In this document: positions 7,227-31,462 of the stretch, piece after piece | Layout of the letters: each line of letters opens with the position of its first letter | Numbering within the stretch: position 1 is the stretch's first letter | Source: Mycolicibacterium smegmatis | Lineage (GTDB): Bacteria > Actinomycetota > Actinomycetes > Mycobacteriales > Mycobacteriaceae | Assembly (NCBI RefSeq): GCF_001457595.1 | Contig: NZ_LN831039.1 | Span: 1,140,001-1,172,000, forward strand | Reading direction: 5' to 3' | Length of the DNA: 32,000 nucleotides | The notes under the pieces: model-generated | The model's input: the letters and a program-made list of their open reading frames with translations, nothing else | Databases searched by the model: none | Told to the model about the DNA's origin: nothing | Position numbers and translations under genes: made by a program

Positions 7227-8373
7227 ATGAGTGGATTTCGCGTCGGGGTCAGCGACGGGGTGGTCGTCTCCCGTCCCACCGCGGACGCGTTCACCCGATC
7301 GAACTATCTGTCCGCAGTGGCTGCCGGAGTCGACTCGTTCTGGGTTCCTGATCACCTGAACAGCCTCTTCCCGCGCACCTTGTGGAACCCAAAGAACTCC
7401 GGCGCAGCGAAACTCGCGCCGTCCATCGACGCGGTCATGGAGCCGTGGACGATGCTCGGACACCTCGCGGCCCGCAACCGAGTCGCGCGTCTGCGACTGG
7501 GCATCGGCGTCACCGACAGCGGACGACGCAATCCGGCGGTCACGGCGCAGGCCGCGGCGACGCTTCACCTGCTGACGAAAGGGCGCGCGATCCTCGGGAT
7601 CGGCACCGGTGAACGCGAGGGCAACGAACCCTACGGTGTCGACTGGTCCAAGCCGGTGGCCCGGTTCGAGGAGGCGATGGCCACCCATCCGCGCGCTGTG
7701 GGATTCCAAAGGCGAGTTGGTGAACCGTGATTCGCCGTTCTTCCCGCTGCGCAACGCGCTCTTCGATCTACCGCCGTACCGCGGCACGTGGCCTCAGATC
7801 TGGATCGCGGCGCACGGACCACGGATGCTGCGCGTGGTGGGCCGCTATGCCGACGCCTACTTCCCGGCCTTCCCGCACCGCCCGGCCGATTACAAACAGC
7901 GTCTCGATCTGATACGCGATGCGGCGTCGAACGCCGGTCGCGATCCCGGCGACATCCTTCCGGCCGTGGAACTCTTCGTGGTCACGGGGCGCACCCGCGA
8001 CGAGGTCGACGCGGCTCTCGAGTCCCCGTTGGTCCGGTCGTTCGGACTGTCGATCGCCGACGAGCACTTTGTGCGCCATGGCACACAGCATCCACTGGGA
8101 GAGGGATTCTCCGGCGCCCAGGACATCCTGCCGCAGCAGTTCGACGAACAGACTGCGCTGGAGCATGCGGCGCGCGTACCGGTGTCACTTCTGAAAGAGG
8201 TCCTGGTGACAGGGACTTCCGACGACATCGTCGACCAGGTGGCCGAACGGCGGGATTGCGGTGTGCGGTACGCGGTGCTCGCGAACATCACCCCGTTGCA
8301 GACCAGCCTGCGCAAGGGTCTCGCGGCAAGCGGACCGTTCCTGAAAGCGCTGCGCAAACTCAAGAAACTCTGA
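7227..8373 (+). pseudogene. LLM-class F420-dependent oxidoreductase (Rv2951c-like), interrupted by a +1 frameshift
   Basis: Two ORFs in different frames (7194..7730 and 7609..8373) together give one luciferase-like monooxygenase protein. Frame A reads ...[12 protein letters not shown] then nonsense (HPRAVGFQ...*). Frame B resumes [33 protein letters not shown]. Removing one C from the CCC run at 7684-7686 restores ...EEAMATIRALW. Confidence 0.8.
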
Positions 8374-8408
8374 ATGTCCTGATATGTGGGATGCGTGGCG
8401 TAGACGCC

Positions 8409-9416
8409 ATGAGCCGGGTGTTCGACACTGAAGTGGTGACGCGGTCGGTGGTGATCCTCGGGTACTCCGGCGTCCAGGCATTGGATCTGGTGGGCCCGTT
8501 CGACGTGTTCACCGGCGCCGCGCTGTGGCTGGCCGGGCAGGGCCGCGAACAGCAGGCGTACACGGTCACGCTCGCCTCGGCCGACGGCGCGCCGGTCACC
8601 ACGCTGACCGGCCTGGAGTTCGTCGCCGCGCCGCCGCCCGACCCGTGTGGCGACATCGACACCGTCGTCATCCCCGGTGGCATCGGCGCCGACGAGGCCA
8701 GGCGCAACCGGGAGGTCGTCAACTGGATCAAGACCGCGGCCGACCACGCACGCCGCGTGGTGACCGTGTGCACGGGCGCGTTCCTGGCCGCCGAGGCAGG
8801 CCTGCTCGACGGCTGCCCGGCCACCACCCACTGGGCGTCGGCGCGTCGGCTCGCCGACGAATTCCCGTCGGTGACAGTCGATCCGGAGCCCATCTTCATG
8901 CGCAGCTCCGAACGCGTGTGGACCGCTGCCGGTGTCACGGCGGGCATCGACCTGGCACTGTCGCTCGTCGAGGACGACCACGGTACCGACGTCGCGCAGA
9001 ACGTCGCACGCTGGCTCGTGCTGTATCTGCGCCGGCCCGGCGGTCAGACGCAGTTCGCCGCGCCGGTGTGGATGCCGCGGGCCAAACGGGCGCCGATCCG
9101 CGCGGTGCAGGAGGCCATCGAAGCCGATCCCGGTGGTGCACACAGCATCTCGGACCTCGCGCAGCGTGCCGCAATGAGCCCTCGGCACTTCACGCGGGTG
9201 TTCACCGAGGAGGTGGGGCAGTCGCCCGGGGTGTACGTCGAGCGCATCCGCATCGACGCCGCGCGTCGTCAACTCGAGGAGAGCGACGACACCGTCACCG
9301 CCATCGCGGCGCGCTGTGGATTCGGCACCGCGGAAACCATGCGCCGCAACTTCATCCGCCGTCTCGGGGTCTCGCCCGACCAGTACCGCAAGACGTCCGC
9401 GCTCACCGGACGCTAG
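8409..9416 (+). CDS. GlxA-family AraC-type transcriptional regulator (DJ-1/PfpI-like N-domain plus AraC HTH)
   Basis: N-terminal DJ-1-like domain (VCTGAFLAAEAGLLDG) and C-terminal AraC HTH (SISDLAQRAAMSPRHFTRVF...IAARCGFGTAETMRRNFIR). An alternative ATG lies at 8391. Confidence 0.85.
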   Translation: MSRVFDTEVVTRSVVILGYSGVQALDLVGPFDVFTGAALWLAGQGREQQAYTVTLASADGAPVTTLTGLEFVAAPPPDPCGDIDTVVIPGGIGADEARRNREVVNWIKTAADHARRVVTVCTGAFLAAEAGLLDGCPATTHWASARRLADEFPSVTVDPEPIFMRSSERVWTAAGVTAGIDLALSLVEDDHGTDVAQNVARWLVLYLRRPGGQTQFAAPVWMPRAKRAPIRAVQEAIEADPGGAHSISDLAQRAAMSPRHFTRVFTEEVGQSPGVYVERIRIDAARRQLEESDDTVTAIAARCGFGTAETMRRNFIRRLGVSPDQYRKTSALTGR

Positions 9417-18925: not shown

Positions 18926-20278
18926 TCAAAGGTCGAAAAGTCGCCGCCGATCCCAGTCGGTGACCGCAAGCTGACTGGCGCGCAGTTCGCTGGACAAGAA
19001 CGTAGTGATGTGTTCGACGGCCGCCTCGCCGAGGGTCTGCCGAGTAACCGGGCTGTCGTAGAAAGCGTCGAGCGCTTCACCGAGTGACTCGGGCAGCGGC
19101 CGACCGATCTTCTCGGTGTAGGCGTTCCGCTGCCCCACTTCGTCGGCGGGAAGGAGGCCGCGTTCGATGCCTTCGAGTCCGGCCGCCAACAGTGCGGCAT
19201 ATCCCAGATAGGGATTGATGTCGGCGCCCGGGATGCGGTTCTCTAAGTGGCGGGCCGAGCCGTGGCCGGTGACGCGCAGCGCCACCGTGCGGTTGTCATC
19301 ACCCCAGGTGAGCGCAGTCGGGGCGAACGTGCCATCGCGAAAACGCTTGTATGAGTTCGGGTATGGCGCCCAAAGCAGGAAGAAATCACGTGCGAAAGCC
19401 TGCAGTCCGGCGCCGAAATGGCGTAACAGGTTCTCATCTGTGGCGAACAGATTGCTGCCGTTCTCATCGGTCAGCGAGATGTGCAGGTGCGAGCTCGATC
19501 CGGCCCAGTGGTCATCGACTTTGGCCATGAACGTTGCGCTCATTCCGTGGCGGCGGAAAATTTGGCGGGTGGCCATCTTGTAGAGCGCATGCTGATCGGC
19601 CATCCGCATCGGATCGGTGGGGACCAGGGTCACCTCATACTGGCCTGGACAGTATTCGGTCTTGGCGGTCTCGACCTCGATGCCGGTGCGCTGCAACGCG
19701 CCGAACAACTCCGCCATGATCGTCTCGTCGGTGCTGATGGCGCAGGCCAGCTCGGGTTGTAAGGTTTCGCGGATCGGTTTGAGACCGGTGAAGCCCTGTT
19801 GGGCAAGTGTTTCCGAGGTGTGCTGGAGCGCGAAGAACTCGAGCTCCGAGGTAACCAGAGGTTGGTAACCCGCACTGTGCGCACGCTCGATCTGTTTGCG
19901 CAGGATGTTGCGAGGTGACGCGAAAAACGGTGTGCCGTCACCGGTCACGACATCGGCGAACGCGATGCCGACACCGTCCTGCCAACCCATCGGGCGAAGA
20001 GTGTCGGGGTCGGTGACGAAGCGCAGGTCGCCGTAACCGTGATCCCATCCCACGCCGCTGAACCCGTCGAGAAGTTCATGGCCGAGTCCCCAACCGAACA
20101 CCACTTCGCAGGTATTTACGGCCTTCGACGCGGACGCCTGGTAGTGGGGCCAACTGTGTCGCCTTCCCAACAGGCGTCCGGCCAGATCGGGTGTTGCGAC
20201 GACGACCGCGCTGAACGGGTCGGTCGCTGTGTTGACGAAGCCGTTCGTCGTGGTGCGGGGCGAGGCAGCGTTCACCAT
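18926..20278 (-). CDS. Glutamine synthetase-like gamma-glutamyl ligase (GlnA-like/PuuA-like)
   Basis: GS catalytic-domain motifs (TSELEFF, KTEYCPGQYEV, MAKVDDHWAGSSSHLHISL, NSYKRF, NRTVALRV...ENRIPGADINPYL). ATG at 20278 is preceded by AGGAG. The N-terminal 31 aa of the track ORF are rejected. Confidence 0.85.
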   Translation of the reverse strand: MVNAASPRTTTNGFVNTATDPFSAVVVATPDLAGRLLGRRHSWPHYQASASKAVNTCEVVFGWGLGHELLDGFSGVGWDHGYGDLRFVTDPDTLRPMGWQDGVGIAFADVVTGDGTPFFASPRNILRKQIERAHSAGYQPLVTSELEFFALQHTSETLAQQGFTGLKPIRETLQPELACAISTDETIMAELFGALQRTGIEVETAKTEYCPGQYEVTLVPTDPMRMADQHALYKMATRQIFRRHGMSATFMAKVDDHWAGSSSHLHISLTDENGSNLFATDENLLRHFGAGLQAFARDFFLLWAPYPNSYKRFRDGTFAPTALTWGDDNRTVALRVTGHGSARHLENRIPGADINPYLGYAALLAAGLEGIERGLLPADEVGQRNAYTEKIGRPLPESLGEALDAFYDSPVTRQTLGEAAVEHITTFLSSELRASQLAVTDWDRRRLFDL

Positions 20279-20291
20279 TGAAGCTCCTAAA

Positions 20292-20316
20292 TGGACTAGG
20301 GTTGATCCATAGACCA
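20292..20316. promoter_or_regulatory. Imperfect 25-bp palindrome TGGACTAGGGTTGATCCATAGACCA in a divergent promoter (candidate GntR operator)
   Basis: 9 of 12 positions are self-complementary (outer arms TGGaCTA / TAGaCCA). It lies in an AT-rich spacer between the GS-like start (20278, -) and the GntR start (+). Confidence 0.3.
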
Positions 20317-20373
20317 ATCGAAGATACAGTACGACGCGTGTCACGCAACACTGCTGCAGAGGGCGCATCAAAC

Positions 20374-21093
20374 GTGGTCAACGACGTAGTTTTCCGTCCG
20401 GTACGGGGCGGGAACATCGTCGAGGAGACGGTCGATCGACTGGTGGGCGCCATCACACTTGGTGTGATTCCGTTCGGGGGTCAGCTCCCCGTCGAACGAG
20501 ACCTGTCCCAAAAACTGGGAGTCAGCAGAACGACCCTGCGCCAGGCGATCCGCACTCTGGAAGAGCGCGGTGTCGTCGAGGTCCGCCTGGGCCGGGGCGG
20601 TGGCACGTTTGTCCGGCACCGTTCGACGCTGCCGCCGGCTGAAGAAGCCCGGGCACGCGTCGTCGCCATGGGCGATGATCTCGATGACACGTTGGATTAC
20701 CGACAGGTGCTCGAACCTGCCGCCGCCGAACTGGCTGCCCGCCGGCGTAAGCCAGGAGCGGGTGAGTGGCTGGAGAGCCTTCTGAGCGACACCCGGCCGC
20801 CGACGCTCGCCGAGTACCGCATCAACGACGCCCGGTTTCATCTCGCCATCGCAGAACTTGCCGGGGTGCCTTCGTTGACCGCCGCCGTGGCCGACGTCGA
20901 GGTGAGGATTGCCGCACCGCTGGCGCTTCTGCCGCCGTGGGATGACGCTTTGGAGCGGTCCGACCGAGAACATCACGCACTGGCCTACGCGATCGGCCGG
21001 GGGAACGCCGATGAGGCACGCCAGATCATGACCGAGCACCTGTCCTGCACTGCCCATCTGTTGAGGGACCTGAGGCTGCCGTCGCCATCCTGA
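20374..21093 (+). CDS. GntR-family (FadR/FCD-type) transcriptional regulator
   Basis: wHTH LPVERDLSQKLGVSRTTLRQAIRTLEERGVVEV followed by an all-helical FCD-like C-domain. The start is uncertain (GTG at 20374 or 20338). The TTG at 20278 in the track overlaps the divergent gene's ATG and is rejected. Confidence 0.8.
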   Translation: MVNDVVFRPVRGGNIVEETVDRLVGAITLGVIPFGGQLPVERDLSQKLGVSRTTLRQAIRTLEERGVVEVRLGRGGGTFVRHRSTLPPAEEARARVVAMGDDLDDTLDYRQVLEPAAAELAARRRKPGAGEWLESLLSDTRPPTLAEYRINDARFHLAIAELAGVPSLTAAVADVEVRIAAPLALLPPWDDALERSDREHHALAYAIGRGNADEARQIMTEHLSCTAHLLRDLRLPSPS

Positions 21094-21112
21094 TCTGATT
21101 TCTATCTGTCAC

Positions 21113-21136
21113 GGTCACACGCCGTCTGGTGTGACC
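21113..21136. promoter_or_regulatory. Perfect inverted repeat GGTCACAC-N8-GTGTGACC (operator and/or terminator candidate)
   Basis: Located 20 nt after the GntR stop and 45 nt before the permease ATG. It contains the GT..AC cores typical of GntR/FadR operators. Confidence 0.4.
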
Positions 21137-21180
21137 GCCCTGTTGTTGTACCCACCTGTATCTCAACGAGGAGAACCGAC

Positions 21181-22716
21181 ATGTCCGAAGACGTCAGTGA
21201 AATACACCGGAGCGCAAGGGAAAATCGCCTGAAACCGAATGCGCTGGGGCTGACGAGCGTGGTGTTCATGGTTGTTGCCACCGCTGCGCCGATCACCGCG
21301 ATCACCAGCAACATGCCGATCATGGTGGGTCTCGGCACGGGTGTCGGTACGCCTGCGGGCTTCCTGTTGGCAACGGTCACCCTGTCGATTTTCTCGGTCG
21401 GATTCGTGGCAATCGCACGACATGTCACCAGTGCCGGGGCCTTCTACGGGTTCATATCGCGTGGGCTCGGCCGCATCGTCGGCCTTGGGTCGGGATTGCT
21501 GACCACGGCGTCCTACATGATGTTCGAGGTCACTTTGGTCGCACTATTCGGTGTTTTCACCAAGGAGACCATGGCCGCCGAACTGGGTGTGGATTTGCCG
21601 TGGTGGGTATACACCTTCACGCTCATCGCGGTCATCGCCGTGCTCACATACTTCGAAATTGAGCTCACGGCAAAGGTTCTCGGCATAGCACTGGCAGCAG
21701 AAGTGCTCATCCTGGCCGCCATTGCGCTGGCGGTGCTGGCCAACGGTGGCGGGCCCGAAGGCATCTCCGCAGCACCCCTGAGCCCGGCCGAGGCGTTCGC
21801 CGGCCCCTCGGTGGGCCTGGGCCTGTTCTTCGCGTTCTGGTGCTGGATGGGCTTCGAATCCACCGCCCTGTACGGTGAGGAATCGAAGAATCCTCGGCGT
21901 ACCGTCCCCGTTGCGACCTTCATCGTGGTCATCGGCGTCGGTTTGTTCTACGCCTTTGTGAGCTGGATGATCATGTCGGGCAACGGCATCGAGCAAACCG
22001 CTGCCCTCGCGGCGTCGGACAGCCCGTTCGAGACGGTATTCGCGCCGACCCGTGAATTCCTCGGCGAGTGGGCCGTGCTGATCTTCCGCTGGCTCCTGCT
22101 GACCGGAACATTCGCCTGCGCAATGGCATTCCACAACTGCGCGTCCCGGTACCTGTATGCGCTCGGGCGCGAGCGCATCCTGCCGGGTGTGCTGGGTCGT
22201 ACACATCCGCGCTATGGGTCACCGTGGGTGGCGTCGATCGTCCAGTCGGCATTTGTGGTGATCGTCACCCTGTGCTACTGGTCCAGCGGACTGGATCCGT
22301 ACGTCGGTCAGTACACGCTTTCGGCATTGTTGGGCACCATGGGAATCATTGTGGTCCAGGCACTCTGCTCGCTGGCGGTCACGGCGTACTTCTGGCGTAA
22401 TCCCGATAAGCGACCGCATTTCCTCGTCTGGGTCGTGGCGCCCATCCTCGGTGCGTTGGCGATGATCGGCGCTGTGTTGCTGCTCGTGCTCAACATGGAC
22501 GCAGCCGCCGGCGGGCCCGCAGCATCGACGCTGCTGTTCCGGCTGATCCCCTGGATTGTCGGTGCCGTGTTCATCGCGGGTTGCGTGTTGGCAGTGTGGC
22601 TGCGCAAATCGGCTCCCCAGCGGTATGAGCTCATCGGCCACCTCGATGTCGTCGCTCCAGGTGGTGTCGAGAACGGCCCGGAGGGAACGAAGTCGTTTCC
22701 CGCGGCGATGAACTGA
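21181..22716 (+). CDS. APC-superfamily amino acid/amine permease
   Basis: 511 aa with about 12 hydrophobic helices and typical APC features (FFAFWCWMGFESTALYGEESKNPRRTVP). SD GAGGAG upstream. Confidence 0.85.
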   Translation: MSEDVSEIHRSARENRLKPNALGLTSVVFMVVATAAPITAITSNMPIMVGLGTGVGTPAGFLLATVTLSIFSVGFVAIARHVTSAGAFYGFISRGLGRIVGLGSGLLTTASYMMFEVTLVALFGVFTKETMAAELGVDLPWWVYTFTLIAVIAVLTYFEIELTAKVLGIALAAEVLILAAIALAVLANGGGPEGISAAPLSPAEAFAGPSVGLGLFFAFWCWMGFESTALYGEESKNPRRTVPVATFIVVIGVGLFYAFVSWMIMSGNGIEQTAALAASDSPFETVFAPTREFLGEWAVLIFRWLLLTGTFACAMAFHNCASRYLYALGRERILPGVLGRTHPRYGSPWVASIVQSAFVVIVTLCYWSSGLDPYVGQYTLSALLGTMGIIVVQALCSLAVTAYFWRNPDKRPHFLVWVVAPILGALAMIGAVLLLVLNMDAAAGGPAASTLLFRLIPWIVGAVFIAGCVLAVWLRKSAPQRYELIGHLDVVAPGGVENGPEGTKSFPAAMN

Positions 22717-23432
22717 TGGCGAATCGTCCGCTCATCGGGCTGACCACCTACCGTGAGTCGATCCGCTGGGGCAAGTGGCACATGCCGGCTTTGTTCACCC
22801 CGGAGACGTACGTCTCGGCGGTGGATCGTGCCGGAGGCGAACCGCTCCTGCTGCCCACAGCTCTCGGTCACGCACGGTCGGCGGTGTTGGCACTCGTCGA
22901 CGGCCTTCTGGTCGTCGGCGGTGCCGATATCGCCGCGGAAAATTACGGCGAGCGCACGCAGCCGGAAACGGATCCTCGGCCGGTGCGCGACCGTGGTGAG
23001 CTGGAAGCGCTCGACTATGCGCTGGGCAACGATCTGCCGGTGCTCGGGGTCTGCCGAGGCATGCAACTGATCAACGTGCACGCGGGCGGTTCCCTGATCC
23101 AACATCTACCGACACAGGTCGGGCATCACGAACACCTCCGGACTCCAGGAGAATTCGGAAGTCACCCGGTGCGGGTCGACCAGGCAAGCAGGATCTCCAC
23201 GGTCGTCGGCCCGGGACCTGTGGTGACCACATACCACCACCAGGGCATCGGGCGGCTTGGTAGCGGATTGAAAGCGGTCGCCTGGGCCGACGACGGCGTG
23301 ATCGAGGCAGTCGAATCCACCACCCATTCCTACGTAATCGGCGTGCAGTGGCACGCCGAGCGGGACGACGGAACGCCGCTGATCGAGGCGTTCGTCGAAC
23401 AATGCGCGCGAAGAAAGGCGAAATGGCCATGA
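22716..23432 (+). CDS. Gamma-glutamyl-gamma-aminobutyrate hydrolase family protein (PuuD-like, peptidase C26 / class-I GATase)
   Basis: GLTTY..., the nucleophile motif LGVCRGMQLIN, and VQWHAE (His/Glu). The ATG overlaps the permease stop (ATGA-type, 22714-22718). Confidence 0.85.
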   Translation: MANRPLIGLTTYRESIRWGKWHMPALFTPETYVSAVDRAGGEPLLLPTALGHARSAVLALVDGLLVVGGADIAAENYGERTQPETDPRPVRDRGELEALDYALGNDLPVLGVCRGMQLINVHAGGSLIQHLPTQVGHHEHLRTPGEFGSHPVRVDQASRISTVVGPGPVVTTYHHQGIGRLGSGLKAVAWADDGVIEAVESTTHSYVIGVQWHAERDDGTPLIEAFVEQCARRKAKWP

Positions 23433-24400
23433 TGAACGGCGAGCTCCGAATCGCCATCGCACAGAAAGCACCGGTGTTTCTCAACCGGGCGGCCACGACA
23501 GAGTTGGTCTTGAGCACAATCGCGGAGGCGGCCGCCGCGGGGGCCCGCTTGGTGGTCTTCCCGGAGACCTTCCTTCCCGGGTACCCGATGTGGGTGTGCC
23601 GCACAGACGGTGCAGTGTTCGACGACGCGGACCAGAAAGCGGCGCACGCCTACTATCTGGACCAGGCAGTCGAGGCCGACGGACCGGAACTACGCTCGAT
23701 CGCGCAGTGCGCGCGTGACCACGGGGTGCTCGTCTATCTCGGTATCGCCGAACGTGGGCACGCGGCCGCGCGAGGGACCGTGTTCTGTTCGCTGGCCACG
23801 ATCGAACCCGAACGCGGGCACGTCACCATCCATCGGAAGCTTTTGGCAACCTACGACGAACGGTTGGTCTGGGGACACGGAGACGGGTATGGGTTGCGCT
23901 GCCACAACCTCGACGGCGTGAACCTCGGAGGGTTGATCTGCTGGGAGAACTGGATGCCGCAGGCGCGCCATGCGTTGTACGCCGACGGTGAGGATGTGCA
24001 CATCAGTGTGTGGCCCGGCAACAAGAGCCTGACCAAGGACATCTCGCGATTCATCGCGCTCGAAGGGCGGGTGTGGTCCGTGGCGGCGGCGGCGGTGCTG
24101 ACGAGTGAGCACATCCCAGCCGATTTCCCGTTGGCCGAGCAACTTGCGGCCCGCGGGCCTGAAACCTACTTCGACGGTGGATCTGCCGTCGTATCACCGA
24201 CCGGCGAGTTCGTCGTCGAACCCGTTGTGGGCGAGGAACGTCTGATCATTGCGGATCTGAGTTCCGCAGCCGTCCGTGAAGAGCGATTGCTGTTCGACGC
24301 GACCGGTCACTATGCGCGACCGGACGTCTTTACCTGCACGGTCGATCGCCGCCGCAGAGATCCGGTGCAGTTCGTTGACGGTCAGGGCGTGTCCCGTTGA
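23423..24400 (+). CDS. Nitrilase / carbon-nitrogen hydrolase
   Basis: Glu-Lys-Cys triad in context: VVFPETFLPGYP, HRKLLATYDER, GLICWENWMP. The start ATG is at 23423, 23429 or 23432 and overlaps or abuts the PuuD-like stop (23430-23432). Confidence 0.85.
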   Translation: MAMMNGELRIAIAQKAPVFLNRAATTELVLSTIAEAAAAGARLVVFPETFLPGYPMWVCRTDGAVFDDADQKAAHAYYLDQAVEADGPELRSIAQCARDHGVLVYLGIAERGHAAARGTVFCSLATIEPERGHVTIHRKLLATYDERLVWGHGDGYGLRCHNLDGVNLGGLICWENWMPQARHALYADGEDVHISVWPGNKSLTKDISRFIALEGRVWSVAAAAVLTSEHIPADFPLAEQLAARGPETYFDGGSAVVSPTGEFVVEPVVGEERLIIADLSSAAVREERLLFDATGHYARPDVFTCTVDRRRRDPVQFVDGQGVSR

Positions 24401-24780
24401 GCGTGCAGGTGTTGTCGGCGATCGCCTTGGTCATGATTGCGATCGCGGCCTGGTCCGGGTGGTTGTTGGAGATCAACCACCGCAAACCGCAATTGCTGGA
24501 GAAAGTCGGCATCGTTGCCATCCGGCCGATCTTGCAGGCCCACCTCGATTGGTTGTTGATGGGCGCCGTGCTGATCGGTGTCGACGTGATCGTGCCAGAC
24601 AGGCCTGGATGGATCACGTTCCTGTTGGGCTACGGGGCGATCATCAACCCGGTGTTGTTCCTGCCGCTGGCGTTCCGCGGACGCGGCCTCAAGCCGCTGC
24701 CATGGCAGATCCTCATGTTCAGTTCATTCGGTGCACTGAGCATCGGTTTCACCGCACTGGCCGTGCACGCGCTCATCTGA
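24397..24780 (+). CDS. Small integral membrane protein (127 aa, about 4 TM), function unknown
   Basis: Four hydrophobic segments. The TTG at 24397 overlaps the nitrilase stop (TTGA). An alternative GTG lies at 24403. No family recognised. Confidence 0.55.
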   Translation: MSVQVLSAIALVMIAIAAWSGWLLEINHRKPQLLEKVGIVAIRPILQAHLDWLLMGAVLIGVDVIVPDRPGWITFLLGYGAIINPVLFLPLAFRGRGLKPLPWQILMFSSFGALSIGFTALAVHALI

Positions 24781-24970
24781 CGTGCCCGCACGCGCACCGT
24801 TACCGAGTACGCGGTCCATGCGGCGCTGGCATTCGTCGTCGACCTCGGGCCTCTGGTGGGCTACGAGAACTCCGCGTGTGCGCGGGCCCGGATGATGGAG
24901 GTGACGCTCACCGGCACGCTGCGGTCGGCGACGGCAGCGCCCGCCGCGCGCAGACCGCCACCCCGCTTAC

Positions 24971-24985
24971 TGAAAACTGTTCTCA
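24971..24985. promoter_or_regulatory. Zur-box-like palindrome TGAAAACTGTTCTCA
   Basis: 15-bp palindrome with one mismatched pair. It resembles the actinobacterial Zur box TGAAAATGATTTTCA. It ends 20 nt upstream of the GTG of a COG0523 GTPase, a classic Zur target. Confidence 0.5.
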
Positions 24986-25004
24986 ACAACCTTACGATGG
25001 CCGG

Positions 25005-26003
25005 GTGAGGACAACCGGATCTGTACCCGTGCTGGCCCTCGCTGGATACCTGGGGGCGGGCAAGACCACGCTGCTCAACCATCTGCTGCGCAACAGTCGC
25101 GGCGTGCGCATCGGTGCCCTGGTGAACGACTTCGGCGCGGTGAACATCGACGCCATGTTGGTGGCCGGTCAGGTCGACGCGATGGCCGGGCTGACCAACG
25201 GGTGTATCTGCTGTGCCGTGGACGCCGACGAGGCAGGGGAGATGCTCGGCAAGCTCGCGGCCGTGAAGCCGCGTCTGGACCTCATCGTCGTGGAGGCCAG
25301 CGGGCTCGCCGAGCCTGCCGCGCTCGCGCGCACCATCGCCATGGCCGACGACACGCGCTACCACTACGCGGGGCTGGTGCTCGTGGTCGACGCCGTCGAA
25401 TCCACCCGTGCCGAACTGGGCAACAACGTCCAGGTGGCCGACCTCGTCGTGGTCAACAAAGCCGATCAGGTCAGCGACGCCGAACTGGAGGCCGTCCGCG
25501 CCAAGATCACCGCCCTCAACGATCGAGTCCCGGTGCTGCCCACCGAATTCGGACGCGTCGACCCTGAGCTGCTCATCGACCCGCCGCAGCAGGTGCCCAG
25601 GGTCGCGCAGCTGAGTCTCGACGAACTGCTCTGGGAGACATACGATCACGACCATCACGAGCACGCGACGTTCCAGAGCGTCGCATTCACGTCCGATGTG
25701 CCGCTCGATCCGCGGCGGTTCATGGACTTGCTCAAGAACCGCCCGGCCGGGATGTACCGCGCCAAGGGTTTTGTCGACTTCGGCGATGCCGGCGAGGGCC
25801 GCAAGTTCGTCCTGCAACTCGTCGGTGGATCGCTGCGGTTCGAGCGCCGGCGCTGGGACCGCGGCGAGGCCCGCCGGACATCCCTCGTGCTGATCGGCAC
25901 GGACATCGACGAGGCGGCCGCATTGTCTGCTCTGCAGGGGTGCGCGACCGCTGAACCCGCCGACAAGCAGGCCATCCTCGGCGTCCTGCGTTACACCGAC
26001 TGA
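25005..26003 (+). CDS. CobW/COG0523-family G3E GTPase (putative zinc metallochaperone)
   Basis: Walker A GYLGAGKTTLLNHLL, the CxCC motif GCICC, NKAD, and the His-rich stretch YDHDHHEH before the CobW C-domain. GTG start at 25005. The 243-aa N-terminal extension of the 575-aa track ORF overlaps two better genes and is rejected. Confidence 0.9.
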   Translation: MRTTGSVPVLALAGYLGAGKTTLLNHLLRNSRGVRIGALVNDFGAVNIDAMLVAGQVDAMAGLTNGCICCAVDADEAGEMLGKLAAVKPRLDLIVVEASGLAEPAALARTIAMADDTRYHYAGLVLVVDAVESTRAELGNNVQVADLVVVNKADQVSDAELEAVRAKITALNDRVPVLPTEFGRVDPELLIDPPQQVPRVAQLSLDELLWETYDHDHHEHATFQSVAFTSDVPLDPRRFMDLLKNRPAGMYRAKGFVDFGDAGEGRKFVLQLVGGSLRFERRRWDRGEARRTSLVLIGTDIDEAAALSALQGCATAEPADKQAILGVLRYTD

Positions 26004-26014
26004 GCATTTCGTCG

Positions 26015-26067
26015 ATTTCTGCACCAGGGCTGCGAATCCCGCGTCATCGCGACCCTCATGCAGAAAT
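26015..26067. promoter_or_regulatory. Inverted repeat ATTTCTGCA-N35-TGCAGAAAT (extendable to about 13 bp) between the GTPase gene and the ferredoxin gene
   Basis: Perfect 9-bp arms, then CC/CA mismatches, then AGGG/CCCT. It could be a terminator stem for the GTPase gene or an operator upstream of the ferredoxin promoter. Confidence 0.35.
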
Positions 26068-26103
26068 CGGCGCATCTCTATTTTTTACAAGTGAGAGTTG
26101 GAG

Positions 26104-26109
26104 TAATAT
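26104..26109 (+). promoter_or_regulatory. Candidate -10 hexamer TAATAT placed for a leaderless ferredoxin transcript
   Basis: TAATAT ends 6 nt before the ATG at 26116, and no SD lies between them. The surrounding 40 bp are AT-rich (TCTATTTTTTACAAGTGAGAGTTGGAGTAATAT). The geometry is typical of mycobacterial leaderless mRNAs. Confidence 0.4.
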
Positions 26110-26115
26110 GACGCC

Positions 26116-26460
26116 ATGACATACGTGATCGGCCGGCCGTGCGTGGACGTCAAAGACCGCGCATGCGTGGATGAGTGCCCGGTCGACTGCATCTACGAGG
26201 GCGCGCGGATGCTCTACATCCGCCCCGACGAATGTGTCGACTGTGGCGCGTGTGAACCCGTGTGCCCGGTGGAGGCGATCTACTACGAGGACGACCTGCC
26301 CGAGGATCTGCAGCCGTACCAGGAGGAGAACGCGAAGTTCTTCACCGATGTCCTGCCCGGGCGTGCCCAACCGCTCGGATCACCGGGCGGTGCCGCGAAA
26401 CTCGGTGTCGTGGACGCCGATACGCCCATGGTGGCGCAGTTGCCGCCGCAGGGGGACTGA
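26116..26460 (+). CDS. fdxA: 7Fe ferredoxin (3Fe-4S + 4Fe-4S), FdxA-like
   Basis: MTYVIGRPCVDVKDRACVDECPVDCIYEG...CVDCGACEPVCPVEAIYYEDDLP carries the classic CxxxxxxCxxxCP and CxxCxxCxxxCP clusters. At 114 aa it matches the size of mycobacterial FdxA. Confidence 0.9.
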   Translation: MTYVIGRPCVDVKDRACVDECPVDCIYEGARMLYIRPDECVDCGACEPVCPVEAIYYEDDLPEDLQPYQEENAKFFTDVLPGRAQPLGSPGGAAKLGVVDADTPMVAQLPPQGD

Positions 26461-27113
26461 TGGACACCGACACCAGCTCGCCACCTCGAGGCCGCCGCGA
26501 TGCGATCCTGCAGGTGCTGCGCGCCTCCCCGCAGCCGCGCGCCATCGCCGGCATCGCCGACGAACTCGGCGTGCACCCCAACACGGTCCGATTCCACCTC
26601 GAGGCGCTGGCCCGGGCCGGGCGCGTCGAGCAGGTGGTCGGTGAGGCCGTCGGCCGGGGCCGACCTCCGGTCCTGTACCGCGCGAGCCGCCGGATGGACC
26701 CGTCCGGACCCACCAACTACCGCCTCCTGGCGAGCATTCTGACGGGCTACGTCGCGCGTGACCCGGATGCCGCCGCTGTCGCCGCGGATCTGGGCCGGTC
26801 GACGAGTCCCGGGCTGGTCACCACCGCACCGCACGGTCCGTCGACCAGAACGCAGGCCGTCACCGAACTGGTGGATCTGCTGGCGGAGCTGGGTTTCGAA
26901 CCCGAACCCGCAGATGGCCGGCGCGCGCGCGAGATCCGACTGCGTCACTGCCCGTTCCAGAATCTCGCCGAGGAACACGGTGAGGTGACCTGCGCGCTAC
27001 ACCTCGGTCTCATGCAGGGCGCACTACGGGACCTGCAGGCGCCGGTCACCGTGGATCGCCTGGAACCCTTTGTCGAACCTGATCTCTGCGTCGCGCATCT
27101 GGCACCGCGATGA
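26460..27113 (+). CDS. Winged-HTH (ArsR/MarR-like) transcriptional regulator with a Cys-containing C-terminal domain
   Basis: RDAILQVLRASPQPRAIAGIADELGVHPNTVRFHLEALARAGRVEQV is the wHTH. The C-terminal part contains HCPF, TCALH and LCVAH. The ATG overlaps the ferredoxin stop (TGATG at 26458-26462). Confidence 0.75.
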   Translation: MDTDTSSPPRGRRDAILQVLRASPQPRAIAGIADELGVHPNTVRFHLEALARAGRVEQVVGEAVGRGRPPVLYRASRRMDPSGPTNYRLLASILTGYVARDPDAAAVAADLGRSTSPGLVTTAPHGPSTRTQAVTELVDLLAELGFEPEPADGRRAREIRLRHCPFQNLAEEHGEVTCALHLGLMQGALRDLQAPVTVDRLEPFVEPDLCVAHLAPR

Positions 27114-27143
27114 CGAACCCCCCCGCCCACCAAGGAGGTTGAC

Positions 27144-27428
27144 ATGGCCGCTTCGCAGCCGGTGTTGGAGGCGCTCGGCGATCACGACTACCTGCTGAGA
27201 TTTACGCAGGACGACGACGCCCCCGTGGTGGTGCGCGTGTATGCCGATCCCACTGTCGTCGCGCAGATCGCAGCCGACGAGACGCGTGTGGTCGCGGCGA
27301 CCGCGGACTATCTGATCGCGCGTCAGAGCCTCGAGGACCTGCCCGAACAGGTCGATCTCGACGAGGTCGCCGCCGCCTACGACGACTACGTCGCTGAACT
27401 GCACAGCCGGCTGAATCCTTCGACGTGA
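27144..27428 (+). CDS. Small acidic hypothetical protein (94 aa)
   Basis: Strong SD AAGGAGG 6 nt upstream of the ATG. Coding-like codon bias. Rich in Asp/Glu. No family recognised. Confidence 0.6.
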   Translation: MAASQPVLEALGDHDYLLRFTQDDDAPVVVRVYADPTVVAQIAADETRVVAATADYLIARQSLEDLPEQVDLDEVAAAYDDYVAELHSRLNPST

Positions 27429-27443
27429 CCGGAGAACACGGCG

Positions 27444-28040
27444 ATGGACACGTTCACGCTCGGTATGCCCCGGTGGCCGTTCCTGTTGCGGTTGTGGGGC
27501 CGTCACCCGCTGGTGCGCCCCGCCGATCGGGTCGAGGCATTCGCTGTCGTGCTGACCGTCGTCGTGATGCTGGTGACCGCGCCGATCGCCGCGGCGATCG
27601 GGACCACCGTCTACGACACCCGCCGCACGATGTACGCCGAGCAGGCGGACACACGCCGAACCGTCGCCGCCACCGTCATCGATGACGATGCCGCACAGGC
27701 GGTTCTGCGAACCAACACTGCCCTGATGCCGGCACGATGGTCCGTTGCGGGCGTCGAGCACACCGGGACCGTGGAGGTCGCGTCGACAGCGAAAACCGGT
27801 GATGTCGTGCAGATCTGGGTCGACGACCGCGGGGAGCGGACCTCAACGCCGACACCGATCGGCCTCGCTGCCGTGGAAGCGGTGACCGGCGCACTGGTCC
27901 TGTGGCTTGTCGTCGGCTGCATCCAGGGCGGTCTGCTCATGGCGACACGAGCCTTGTGCGACCGGGTCCGCTCGGCTGCCTGGCAGCGCGAACTCGACCA
28001 CCTCGCCGGTACCGACGGGTTTCACTACCCGACCCCATAG
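27444..28040 (+). CDS. Rv1733c-like conserved transmembrane protein
   Basis: Colinear with Rv1733c as I recall it: RHPLVRPADRVEAFAVV (RNPLVRGTDRLEAVVML), ATVIDD (ATVIDH), PARWSVAGVEHTGTVEV (PARWVVNGIERSGEVNA), GDVVQIWVDD (GDRVGIWVDS), and RVRSAAWQRELDHL (RVRNASWQHDIDSL). Two TM helices. Confidence 0.8.
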   Translation: MDTFTLGMPRWPFLLRLWGRHPLVRPADRVEAFAVVLTVVVMLVTAPIAAAIGTTVYDTRRTMYAEQADTRRTVAATVIDDDAAQAVLRTNTALMPARWSVAGVEHTGTVEVASTAKTGDVVQIWVDDRGERTSTPTPIGLAAVEAVTGALVLWLVVGCIQGGLLMATRALCDRVRSAAWQRELDHLAGTDGFHYPTP

Positions 28041-28534: not shown

Positions 28535-29806
28535 GTGGTCGGCTACGGGCGCATCGACGGTGGGCCGCGGTCGGCGATCGTGGTCGGTGCCGGCACGGTC
28601 GGACTGTCGGCGGCGTGGTTCCTGCAGGAACGTGGTGTCGCCGTCACGGTCGTCGACCGGGTCGGCGTGGGCACCGGCGCGTCATGGGGCAATGCCGGGT
28701 GGATCGCGCCGGCGCTGACTGTGCCCGCCAACTCGCCGGCGATGCTGCGCGACGGCCTCCGCTCGCTGTTCGATTCGCAGGCGCCGCTGCACATCCCGCT
28801 GGCCGCGGACTCCGAACTCGCCAACTTCCTGATCCAGTTCGCCGCCAACTGTCGTCGCGCGTCATGGAAACGGGCGATACGCGCCAACGTCCCGCTCAAC
28901 GAGGAGTGCCTCGAAGCCTTCGATGTCCTGTTCGCCAACGGCGTCGACGCGCCTTTGACCGACGCACCCATCACCGCGTTGTTCAGCACCGCCGCCGAAG
29001 CCGAACGGATGATGCGTGATCTGCGCGCGCTCGAAGACGCCGGGCAGACGATTTCGGTCAGCGGACTGTCGGGCAGACAACTGCGCGACCAGGTTCCGCT
29101 GGCATCGCCGGCAATTGCCGCCGCACTGAACGTCAACGGCCAGCGCTACGTCGATCCGGGCCGGTTCGTGCAGGCGCTGCGACACGCGGTCGAGGAGCGT
29201 GGCGCCACGATGCGCACGATGGAGGTCTCCGACGTGTTGAGCTCCGGCAACGGAGTTCAGGTGTACCCCCGCATCGGCAAGTGGCTCACAGCCGACGTCG
29301 CGGTGGTCGCCACCGGCGCGTGGTTGCCGCGCCTGGCCGGTAGCCGCATCACCGTGCCGGTGCAGGCTGCGCGACGCTACTCGTTCACCGTGCCTGTCGA
29401 CCGTCCCATCCCCACGCCGATCTACCTGCCGGAGGCCGGGATCGCGTGCACGCCCCACAAGGGGGCACTGCGGGTCACTGGTGCCACCGAACTGCGCGAT
29501 CCCTATGAGCCGGCGATGCCGTCGCGCATCGGAGCCATGGTGGCCGCCGCCGAACCCCTGCTGGAGGGCGTGCGCTGGGCCGAGCGCAGCGACATCTGGG
29601 TCGGCCCAGGGGCTCTCACCCCAGACGGGCGGCCCCTGATCGGCGAGATGTCGCGCGGCGTGTACCTCGCCGGCGGTCATGGCATGTGGGGCCTGGCGCA
29701 CGGACCGGTGACCGGCAGGCTCCTGGCCGAGTACATCACCACCGGCAAGCAACCGGAGGCCCTACGACCGTTCGACCCGCTGCGCCGCACGGGTGCCGAC
29801 CCCTGA
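28535..29806 (+). CDS. FAD-dependent oxidoreductase (DadA-like D-amino-acid dehydrogenase / DAO family)
   Basis: N-terminal dinucleotide fold AIVVGAGTVGLSAAWFLQERGVAVTVVDR. The ASWGNAGW motif is typical of DadA-type enzymes. C-terminal GGHGMWGL. GTG start preceded by GGAGG. Confidence 0.85.
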   Translation: MVGYGRIDGGPRSAIVVGAGTVGLSAAWFLQERGVAVTVVDRVGVGTGASWGNAGWIAPALTVPANSPAMLRDGLRSLFDSQAPLHIPLAADSELANFLIQFAANCRRASWKRAIRANVPLNEECLEAFDVLFANGVDAPLTDAPITALFSTAAEAERMMRDLRALEDAGQTISVSGLSGRQLRDQVPLASPAIAAALNVNGQRYVDPGRFVQALRHAVEERGATMRTMEVSDVLSSGNGVQVYPRIGKWLTADVAVVATGAWLPRLAGSRITVPVQAARRYSFTVPVDRPIPTPIYLPEAGIACTPHKGALRVTGATELRDPYEPAMPSRIGAMVAAAEPLLEGVRWAERSDIWVGPGALTPDGRPLIGEMSRGVYLAGGHGMWGLAHGPVTGRLLAEYITTGKQPEALRPFDPLRRTGADP

Positions 29807-30334: not shown

Positions 30335-31462
30335 GTGGACGTTTTGGAACGACTCGACCTCGACACCGTCCGAGAACTGTCGCAGCGGACCGACAGGCTG
30401 GGAGTGGTGTCGCTGTACTTCAATGCCGACCCTACCCAGAACCTGCAGGTGCAGGCCATCGATCTGAGAAACCGATACCGGTTGTTACATCGCCGCATGG
30501 AAGCCGATGGCTCCCAACGCTATCGGGACGTCGCCGCAGCGCTGGAGCGCCGCAGGCCGCTCATCGAGACCCTGATCACCGGAGTCGCGTCGGGCCGCGG
30601 GCGCATCATGTTCATCGGGTTGGACGGCGACTGGACCGTGCACTTCGAGTGTATGATGCCGGTGACCAACCGTGTGGTGCTCGACGACGGCCCTTTCATC
30701 CACCCGCTGGTGGAAGTTCTCGACGAAGGCCGCCCGGCCGGCGTCGTGGTGATCTCCGCCGACGATGCGCGGTTGCTGGAATGGCGCCTGGGCCAGCTGC
30801 AGGAGATCAGTCGCATCGCGCAGCCGTTCGGTCAGGCGCCGCACGAGCGGGCCGGCCAGATGCGCGAACAGCGCCAGGCCCGCGAGCGTGACGGCATGCA
30901 GCGATTCGTGACCCAGGTGACCGCGACCGCGACGGATCTCGCCGAGGAGCGTGGGTGGGAACGGATCGTGGTCAGTGGCGGGCAACGCTGGACCGAGCCG
31001 GCCAAGACGAGGTTCGGTCCTCCGCTGCGCGGCAAGGTGCTGGTGGACCGGGGCCTCGGCGGCCTCGACGACGCTGCGCTGACGGCCGCCGTCACCGCGC
31101 GTCTGCACCGGCAGCACAAGTACGACGAACAGCAACTGCTCGACTACTTGTGTGACGCCGGCGGGACCGGTGATGTCGCACTGGGCCTGTCCGAGGTCGC
31201 CGCCGCACTGAACGCAGGCAGGGTCGACCATCTGGTGTACGACCCGGCCGTGCGCTACGTGGGGTCCGTGGGTGCCGACGGGTCGCTGTACGCCGACGGT
31301 GAGATCGCGCCGCACAGTCACGCGGCGACGAAGGACTCCCGATTCACCGAGCGCCTCGTCGACCGGGCATTGGCCACCGGCGCGAGGATCAGCCCGGTGG
31401 AGGGCGCGGCCGGTGCGGTGCTGAAGGACGCCGCAGGCGTCGCGGCGGTGCTGCGCTGGTGA
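30335..31462 (+). CDS. eRF1/Pelota-like protein (bacterial baeRF-type; Rv2629-like)
   Basis: 375 aa, GTG start after GAGGAG. The layout matches eRF1/Dom34. A central-domain strand GVVVISADDARLLEW is followed by a Gln-bearing loop PFGQAPHERAGQMREQRQARER. It then has a GWERIVVSG strand, a C-domain GDVALGLSEVAAALNAGRVDHLVY, and a terminal GVAAVLRW (compare eRF1 GGIGGILRY). It is about the same length as M. tuberculosis Rv2629 (374 aa). Confidence 0.7.
   Translation: MDVLERLDLDTVRELSQRTDRLGVVSLYFNADPTQNLQVQAIDLRNRYRLLHRRMEADGSQRYRDVAAALERRRPLIETLITGVASGRGRIMFIGLDGDWTVHFECMMPVTNRVVLDDGPFIHPLVEVLDEGRPAGVVVISADDARLLEWRLGQLQEISRIAQPFGQAPHERAGQMREQRQARERDGMQRFVTQVTATATDLAEERGWERIVVSGGQRWTEPAKTRFGPPLRGKVLVDRGLGGLDDAALTAAVTARLHRQHKYDEQQLLDYLCDAGGTGDVALGLSEVAAALNAGRVDHLVYDPAVRYVGSVGADGSLYADGEIAPHSHAATKDSRFTERLVDRALATGARISPVEGAAGAVLKDAAGVAAVLRW

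Follow-up and report, generated by a model that had tools for sequence, protein, structure and literature searches.

A nitrilase within a gamma-glutamylation gene set of Mycolicibacterium smegmatis: a candidate pathway for amino-nitriles in Actinomycetota

In the Ipu pathway of Pseudomonas sp. KIE171 isopropylamine is glutamylated, modified by a monooxygenase and dehydrogenases and then deglutamylated, and certain natural-product pathways, among them the butirosin and glutamylhydrazine routes, likewise protect an intermediate by gamma-glutamylation. An eLife paper cites the Ipu system and names its ligase IpuA, and three other papers describe GlnA2, GlnA3 and GlnA4 from Streptomyces and Mycobacterium as gamma-glutamyl polyamine or ethanolamide synthetases (PMC5403932, PMC8998196, PMC6529630). 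Glutamine synthetase-like (GS-like) ligases of the glutamyl-organic-amine synthetase class (‘GoaS’) have been reported not to produce glutamine (PMC11335346). The range of such amine ligases is still being mapped, and most bacterial nitrilases have yet to be assigned a natural substrate and a physiological role. Here we describe a locus in which both types of enzyme are encoded together, namely the six genes MSMEG_1116 to MSMEG_1121 of M. smegmatis mc2155, which lie in a stretch of 32,000 nucleotides (contig NZ_LN831039.1, positions 1,140,001 to 1,172,000; called the window below). Their coordinates agree with the published annotation, as the gene coordinates for mc2155 in the supplementary tables of a published RNA sequencing (RNA-seq) study are those of the window shifted by +1,161,437 in all genes compared. 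We regard it as an even bet that this block is a substrate-inducible unit for the catabolism or detoxification of a small amine carrying a nitrile group.

Families were assigned to the open reading frames (ORFs) of the window by Pfam and NCBIfam profile searches, and all six genes that a first-pass annotation had read from the sequence were found where it had placed them: a GS-like ligase, a GntR regulator, an APC permease, a PuuD-like hydrolase, a nitrilase and a small membrane protein (Table 1). It had also remarked that equivalents of the oxidase PuuB and the aldehyde dehydrogenase PuuC of Escherichia coli are missing from the block, which is borne out by the ORF scan. No aldehyde dehydrogenase was present among the scanned window ORFs, and the sole DAO-family gene (28535–29806, 3.7 kb downstream) had to be rejected as a hidden PuuB, as only the motifs binding flavin adenine dinucleotide (FAD) are in common and the gene is absent from related loci. 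In the proposed pathway the permease would bring the compound into the cell, and the ligase would use ATP and glutamate to acylate its amine to a gamma-glutamyl amide. The dedicated nitrilase would then convert the nitrile of this conjugate into a carboxylate and ammonia, before the C26-type hydrolase would free glutamate and the amino acid product. The FadR-type GntR regulator would repress the divergent ligase gene and the operon until its ligand is present. We infer that the three enzymes share one substrate, what this substrate is and in which order they act on it, and the nitrile-hydrolysing activity of MSMEG_1120 and the glutamylation of an amine by MSMEG_1116 are predicted from sequence.

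MSMEG_1120 is, judged by its relatives, a branch-1 nitrilase. Its top 13 PDB matches are all nitrilases, NIT4 or cyanide (di)hydratases (2e-46 to 2e-32), with amidases and carbamoylases following at 6e-10 or worse, and the closest solved structures are Nit6803 (3WUY, 2e-46) and a Rhodococcus nitrilase (8UXU, 1e-41). The Glu-Lys-Cys triad that had been pointed out before proved to be part of a complete Glu-Lys-Glu-Cys tetrad, as E48, K139, E146 and C173 align with the tetrad of 3WUY and with E48, K131, E138 and C165 of 8UXU. E48, E146 and C173 are invariant across 230 homologues and the window protein. Membership in the Nit6803/Nit1C family (TIGR04048) was considered and rejected, since the protein reaches 182.7 bits against a cut-off of 502.6 and its neighbours are not Nit1C genes.

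The hydrolase MSMEG_1119 keeps the Cys114, His222 and Glu224 triad of PuuD (alignment A2), matches PF07722 with 185 bits (cut-off 20.5) and has 3FIJ, 7D4R and 6VTV (PuuD, 5e-23) as PDB matches. It stays under the PuuD equivalog cut-off (NF008471, 87 versus 266 bits). The ligase MSMEG_1116 shows the invariant metal, ATP and glutamate ligands of GlnA (E129, E131, E212, E220, H269, H271, R321, R339, R344, E357 and R359; alignment A1), but has lost two elements of the ammonium site of true glutamine synthetase, the Tyr179 loop being deleted and a Phe replacing Glu327 of the flap, and the same pattern is seen in E. coli PuuA and in NpaA1-like ligases. It falls under all NCBIfam equivalog cut-offs (173 bits with the PuuA model NF045547, cut-off 650), its best PDB matches are the uncharacterised GS-like proteins 11ZS and 5DM3, and the match to NpaA1 amounts to 123 bits only. 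The enzyme is thus not NpaA1-like and belongs to a different GS-like subfamily. MSMEG_1116 has been listed together with MSMEG_5374 as an extra putative GS gene of unknown function apart from glnA1–4 (PMC7816997). Relatives of MSMEG_1116 with about 52% identity were seen in four loci (L085, L086, L087 and L088), where a SnoaL_2 protein follows, a decarboxylase dependent on pyridoxal phosphate (PLP) is adjacent and no nitrilase is present; L087 also has a GntR/FCD regulator. These four loci may represent another uncharacterised glutamylation unit. A metagenome scan with the window ligase gave three short, uninformative loci only.

To see how far these genes belong together we analyzed related loci. 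The entire six-gene block recurs in Patulibacter defluvii (L001) and in a Logan contig similar to M. goodii (L084), with 53–79% protein identity; the nitrilase of the latter shares a 90%-identity cluster with M. goodii proteins. The flanks are unrelated, as no gene flanking the block in the window is found in L001 or L084 except for one weak (38%) methyltransferase match. The arrangement of the six genes is not due to chance, since it is found again in these two genomes although their flanks have nothing in common with those of the window. A scan with the nitrilase (one genome per species, 80 loci, best matches only) revealed a second architecture with a GS-like ligase gene immediately upstream of the nitrilase gene on the same strand. 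It was found in 20 further loci, 17 from the scan and three identified via homologues in the Streptomyces phaeochromogenes group, Cryptosporangium phraense and Mycolicibacterium madagascariense. The second architecture is spread over Solirubrobacteraceae, Patulibacter, Mycobacterium/Mycolicibacterium, Pseudonocardia, Amycolatopsis, Umezawaea, Streptomyces and Cryptosporangium. Where both genes were called, ligase and nitrilase lie 1–31 nt apart, the gene calls in related loci coming partly from a crude caller based on third-codon-position GC. A class-I glutamine amidotransferase-like (GATase-like) protein with a Cys-His-Glu triad comes next in 14 of the 19 evaluable loci, and a GntR/FCD gene is nearby in 18 of the 20.

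The ligases of the second architecture are only 30–35% identical to MSMEG_1116 and match NpaA1 (PDB 8WWU), which glutamylates 1-naphthylamine, at 5.7e-141. Ligase and hydrolase have thus each been swapped for a distant paralogue with the trio of functions being retained. M. smegmatis itself carries a second, paralogous unit of this kind, made up of the NpaA1-like ligase MSMEG_5374, the nitrilase MSMEG_5373 and the FadR-type GntR regulator MSMEG_5375. Among the three mycobacterial loci examined the class-I GATase-like hydrolase is absent in L062 and L093 and present in L076. Altogether the 23 loci checked for linkage cover several orders of Actinomycetota, and the co-conservation of nitrilase, GS-like ligase and gamma-glutamyl hydrolase, which had been proposed as a check, appears in two independent architectures across this phylum. 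In two Solirubrobacteraceae (L019, 12617–16358, and L014) the trio of ligase, nitrilase and hydrolase is closely followed by an APC permease with 38–40% identity to that of the window. After the permease comes a copper amine oxidase in L019 (Pfam 7e-166), with a homologue at the same place in L014, a neighbour that hints at an amine as substrate.

The nitrilases linked to a ligase also stand out among their own relatives. In a neighbor-joining tree of 82 nitrilases (midpoint root, without a characterised outgroup) the root separates all 20 ligase-linked sequences of the genome scan from 62 others, not one of which is linked. In 90 of 100 bootstrap replicates the window-type nitrilase clusters with linked sequences only, and the window-type clade itself was recovered in 99 of 100. 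Position 145 is Asp in 20/20 linked and Glu in 61/62 unlinked sequences, position 250 is Phe in the linked ones and Tyr or Cys in most of the others, and position 289 is Leu or Met (Leu289 in the window) as opposed to Gln in most unlinked sequences. In all, 23 of 23 ligase-linked nitrilases belong to the one group marked by Asp145, Phe250 and Leu289. In the alignment with 8UXU, Asp145 immediately precedes the catalytic Glu146 in the strand bearing the pocket-entrance residues T135 and H136, and Leu289 aligns with Q290, which lies beside the lid residue A291 supplied by the partner monomer. The Asp-Phe signature is present in at least about 136 of 230 homologue clusters (90% identity), the 110 closest relatives of the M. 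yunnanensis enzyme all being among them, and one of these clusters contains ‘Nitrilase 2’ A0R378, which is MSMEG_5373.

Several results speak against a dedicated amino-nitrile pathway. The hydrolase is missing in 5 of the 19 evaluable loci of the second architecture. The single split that isolates all 20 linked nitrilases has a bootstrap of 42 and 44 of 100 in two runs; the linked sequences are long-branched and the window nitrilase has a mean identity of 57% to unlinked and 55% to linked sequences, so that the grouping could also result from long-branch attraction. Moreover, nitrilases of the sister clade function without a ligase and hence the fold itself needs no glutamylated substrate. Asp50 of GlnA is apparently kept in the window ligase, although in a weakly aligned N-terminal stretch, with a Glu at this position in L084. 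Published expression data belong here as well. For MSMEG_1116 to MSMEG_1121 the ratios between nitrogen-limited and nitrogen-replete chemostats were 0.71, 1.51, 0.78, 0.83, 1.10 and 1.18, none of them significant and all at low expression, and MSMEG_1121 had about 5 RNA-seq counts versus 59 for MSMEG_1120, i.e. about 12-fold fewer. Finally, MSMEG_1116 was 3.8-fold lower in the wild type than in a glnR mutant.

General nitrogen control of the window operon is rejected on these RNA-seq data, and as the operon does not respond to nitrogen limitation it looks substrate-induced instead. The second unit behaved differently, with MSMEG_5373 and MSMEG_5374 up 2.35-fold and 2.18-fold under nitrogen limitation and 2.9-fold and 3.6-fold higher in the wild type than in the glnR mutant, which makes them GlnR-dependent. 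Neither these two genes nor MSMEG_1116–1121 were found in the other supplementary tables of the RNA-seq paper, including its GlnR regulon table.

The response of MSMEG_5373 and MSMEG_5374 to general nitrogen limitation would also suit a co-regulated nitrogen-scavenging island without any shared intermediate, in which ligase and hydrolase act on an ordinary amine (a polyamine, ethanolamine or alkylamine) and the nitrilase independently frees ammonia from unrelated nitriles. Their genes would then be neighbours solely because both activities help to acquire nitrogen. Single parts do occur on their own: 62 of the 82 nitrilases in the tree are close homologues (52–62% identity) without a ligase, the ligase relatives next to the SnoaL-like protein and the PLP-dependent decarboxylase do without a nitrilase, and so does a Rhodococcus permease relative accompanied by PuuD-like hydrolases. 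We nevertheless consider this explanation unlikely, as ligase and nitrilase genes are 1–31 nt apart, or overlap in their codons, in more than 20 lineages and the linkage persists through the replacement of ligase and hydrolase by distant paralogues. Linkage also coincides with one nitrilase subgroup, which has distinctive residues close to the active site (23/23 versus 0/62), and the window operon is just the one that does not answer to nitrogen limitation.

A single pathway could also run in another order, with the nitrilase acting first on an imported nitrile (a dinitrile or cyano-amine, for example) and the ligase then glutamylating the resulting amine for further handling, or it could start with the import of a gamma-glutamyl nitrile from plants. 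Gamma-glutamyl-beta-cyanoalanine occurs in Vicia according to PMC4283224, in the window the permease gene precedes those of hydrolase and nitrilase whereas the ligase has a transcript of its own, and the hydrolase is dispensable in some loci. Both versions appear quite improbable to us, because a nitrilase acting first on an amino-nitrile would give an ordinary amino acid and make glutamylation needless, and import of an already glutamylated compound would make the ligase unnecessary, yet it is the most constant partner (23/23 loci). A biosynthetic cassette with the gamma-glutamyl moiety as transient protecting group of a secreted metabolite and the permease as exporter has the butirosin and glutamylhydrazine precedents on its side and is still highly improbable, as the block keeps no further biosynthetic genes beside it, each genome has different flanks, a FadR-type regulator with an APC permease is generally a typical catabolic layout and the reaction of a nitrilase consumes a nitrile and does not form one.

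If the amine is masked by glutamylation ahead of nitrile hydrolysis, as in our preferred pathway, weakly basic alpha-aminonitriles (aminoacetonitrile, for instance) would be attractive as the substrate; beta-aminopropionitrile, beta-cyanoalanine and 4-aminobutyronitrile are possible. Alpha-aminonitriles are weakly basic and break down to cyanide unless they are N-acylated. Glutamylation would be most useful for them, because they resemble the arylamines of NpaA1-type ligases in their weak basicity and would release cyanide unless acylated. An aromatic amine as substrate of the nitrilase-linked NpaA1-like ligases was considered as well and is unlikely, since the pocket loop equivalent to V68–M81 of NpaA1, which is hydrophobic there, is polar in these ligases (FQTATLIFDTTNNP) and argues against an aromatic substrate.

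A broader and more tentative idea, which we hold to be rather doubtful, is that the ligase-linked nitrilases stand for a widespread actinobacterial assimilation of cyanide-derived, weakly basic N-C-N or alpha-amino nitriles, for example Strecker-type aminoacetonitrile or cyanamide. If this were true, gamma-glutamylation would capture a compound prone to release cyanide and at the same time stabilise it, and hydrolysis of the conjugate by the nitrilase would yield a gamma-glutamyl amino acid or, if the substrate is cyanamide, glutamine itself. It would explain why the recruited ligases are relatives of enzymes for weakly basic arylamines and why the hydrolase is dispensable in some genomes, and M. 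smegmatis would hold two such systems differing in substrates and regulation.

The organization of the block is summarized in Table 1.

Table 1. Features of the MSMEG_1116–1121 block; positions refer to the window.
Feature	Position	Strand	Basis
GS-like ATP-dependent gamma-glutamyl ligase (predicted), MSMEG_1116, 450 aa	18926..20278	-	Pfam Gln-synt_C 1e-82
Control region, 95 bp, divergent intergenic region between ligase and regulator; candidate operator	20279..20373	.	
GntR regulator, FadR/FCD subfamily, MSMEG_1117, 239 aa	20374..21093	+	Pfam GntR (PF00392) 3e-15, FCD (PF07729) 1e-18
Perfect 9-pair hairpin CGGTCACAC-N8-GTGTGACCG in the gap between regulator and permease	21112..21137	+	terminator scan and sequence
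APC-superfamily permease, MSMEG_1118, 511 aa	21181..22716	+	Pfam AA_permease_2 2e-27
PuuD-like gamma-glutamyl hydrolase (predicted), Peptidase_C26, MSMEG_1119, 238 aa	22716..23432	+	Pfam 2e-54
Branch-1 nitrilase (predicted), MSMEG_1120, 322–332 aa depending on the start chosen	23402..24400	+	Pfam CN_hydrolase 1e-39
Hydrophobic membrane protein, MSMEG_1121, 127 aa	24397..24780	+	without Pfam family

The longest ORF of the ligase extends to 20371, and homologues as well as the published annotation give 450 aa. For the nitrilase four in-frame ATG codons (23402, 23423, 23429 and 23432) are candidates for the start, and depending on the choice its gene overlaps that of the hydrolase by 1–31 nt. Nitrilase and membrane protein meet in TTGA with a 4-nt overlap, as given in the first-pass annotation, but the ATGA proposed for the permease/hydrolase junction has to be corrected to TGATG with a 1-nt overlap, as read from the sequence. 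In the published annotation MSMEG_1115 is named MenG, MSMEG_1116 ‘gamma-glutamylisopropylamide synthetase’ (an automatic name), MSMEG_1118 amino acid permease, MSMEG_1119 ‘glutamine amidotransferase’, MSMEG_1120 nitrilase, MSMEG_1121 hypothetical protein and MSMEG_1123 CobW.

The regulator consists of an N-terminal GntR and a C-terminal FCD domain and belongs to the FadR subfamily, and MSMEG_1117 has been classed as FadR-type with 239 aa before (PMC2018728). Because of the 9-bp hairpin behind it, its gene is probably a transcription unit separate from the permease operon; the hairpin could act as a terminator or as an operator. The control region is nearly identical between the window and L084 (AAATGGACTAgGGTTGATCCATAGACCAA...GATACAGTAyGACGyGTGTCACGCAAC), and Patulibacter has GGTCTGT-TG-ACAGACC at the equivalent site, so we infer that an operator is probably located there.

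A search of plasmids gave no copy of the block and relatives of the permease only. One of them, on plasmid pR1CP1 of Rhodococcus opacus 1CP (L098, 203600–216525), adjoins two PuuD-family hydrolases, a glutaminase A and an FCD regulator, and a gene for an N,N-dimethylformamidase beta-subunit is also found near it. The 127-aa membrane protein, for which the first-pass annotation had counted four transmembrane segments, showed no Pfam match even at E=5. Its family is rare and uncharacterised, with 62 representatives among 1.84 billion proteins, and the protein is kept at the same position in L001 (53%) and L084 (66%). Its more distant relatives occur in unrelated gene contexts and we therefore, and as there is no Pfam match, assign no role to it. 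A relative with 41% identity is encoded divergently beside a different CN_hydrolase gene (293 aa) in L094 (4713–6399). In Streptomyces sp. NPDC001292 and Pseudonocardia benzenivorans (L063, 7823–8371, and L074, 7901) a DUF1097 membrane protein is encoded directly upstream of the NpaA1-like ligase and may be an analogue of the small membrane protein of the window.

The five large genes of the block have a third-codon-position GC of 0.74–0.79, as have the CobW and ArsR genes downstream (within 18926–28000), in comparison to 0.86–0.90 for the aconitase, short-chain dehydrogenase/reductase (SDR) and MenG genes upstream, and this lower value suggests that the block is an acquired, inserted island. 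It lies within what we take to be the menaquinone locus (MenC, MenD, PimB-like, MenG), going by the gene order of M. tuberculosis. Downstream, a 404-aa ORF (24861–26075, minus strand) was rejected as a gene: it belongs to no family and is antisense to the CobW/COG0523 GTPase gene MSMEG_1123 (25005–26003, plus strand, GTG start at 25005), and as the published annotation places MSMEG_1123 on the opposite strand we regard the ORF as spurious. MSMEG_1123 is not conserved with the block in related loci. Upstream of it, at about 24968–24990, there is an AT-rich stretch (TTACTGAAAACTGTTCTCAACAA) that presumably resembles an actinobacterial Zur box; MSMEG_1123 would then be a separate zinc-regulated unit, if the likeness holds. 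Elsewhere in the window, the ORF at 30335–31462 (plus strand) matches baeRF family 10 (bacterial archaeo-eukaryotic release-factor-like, 5e-36) and is unrelated to the block, and the ORF at 7788–9416 (plus strand) encodes a DJ-1/PfpI domain fused to an AraC-type helix-turn-helix, its true start being probably internal.

A search of the full-text literature, with subscription journals outside its coverage, gave no paper in which a nitrilase is tied to a GS-like ligase and none on the function of MSMEG_1116–1121, in agreement with the earlier statement that no characterised pathway with this combination of genes was known. A nitrilase subgroup that is always paired with a GS-like ligase offers a testable hypothesis, namely an amino-nitrile metabolism that depends on gamma-glutamylation, and M. 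smegmatis is genetically tractable and carries both architectures (MSMEG_1116–1121 and MSMEG_5373–5375). If the hypothesis is true, nitrile hydrolysis would be a new middle step in the strategy to glutamylate, modify and deglutamylate, there would be a new sink for cyanogenic and nitrile compounds in soil, and the nitrilases would be tuned to N-acyl amino-nitriles with a possible use in biocatalysis.

Compared to known systems, the block follows the same logic as Puu of E. coli, with which it shares an APC-type importer, a GS-like ligase without the Tyr179 loop and the Glu327 flap, a C26 hydrolase with a Cys-His-Glu triad and a ligase gene that is divergent from the remaining genes. It differs from Puu in having a branch-1 nitrilase in the middle position instead of the FAD oxidase PuuB and the aldehyde dehydrogenase PuuC, and a GntR/FadR regulator instead of PuuR, and its scores are far below the PuuA and PuuD equivalog cut-offs. 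The second architecture including MSMEG_5374 mirrors, with its class-I GATase-like partner, the NpaA1/NpaA2 pair, which like AtdA1/AtdA2 and TdnQ/TdnT belongs to the aromatic-amine systems made up of a gamma-glutamylanilide synthetase and a GAT-like hydrolase. It has a nitrilase where these systems have a ring-hydroxylating dioxygenase; neither the window block nor the loci of the second architecture contain Rieske or dioxygenase genes. With Ipu the unit would share that a remote carbon is modified while the amine is masked, the glutamyl moiety being removed afterwards, with a nitrilase in the place of monooxygenase and dehydrogenases. GlnA2, GlnA3 and GlnA4 are likewise GS-like ligases of actinobacteria, whose glutamylation of amines serves catabolism or detoxification, but none of them has been reported with a nitrilase. 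The Nit1C cluster for cyanide assimilation in Pseudomonas likewise has a branch-1 nitrilase in a conserved gene cluster, Nit6803 being the closest solved nitrilase, but its partners (radical SAM, GNAT, AIR-synthase-like and others) are absent here. The unit would work like Puu, Ipu and Atd/Npa by the order glutamylate, modify and deglutamylate but belongs to none of them, as it lacks the middle enzymes that define these pathways and stays below the equivalog cut-offs.

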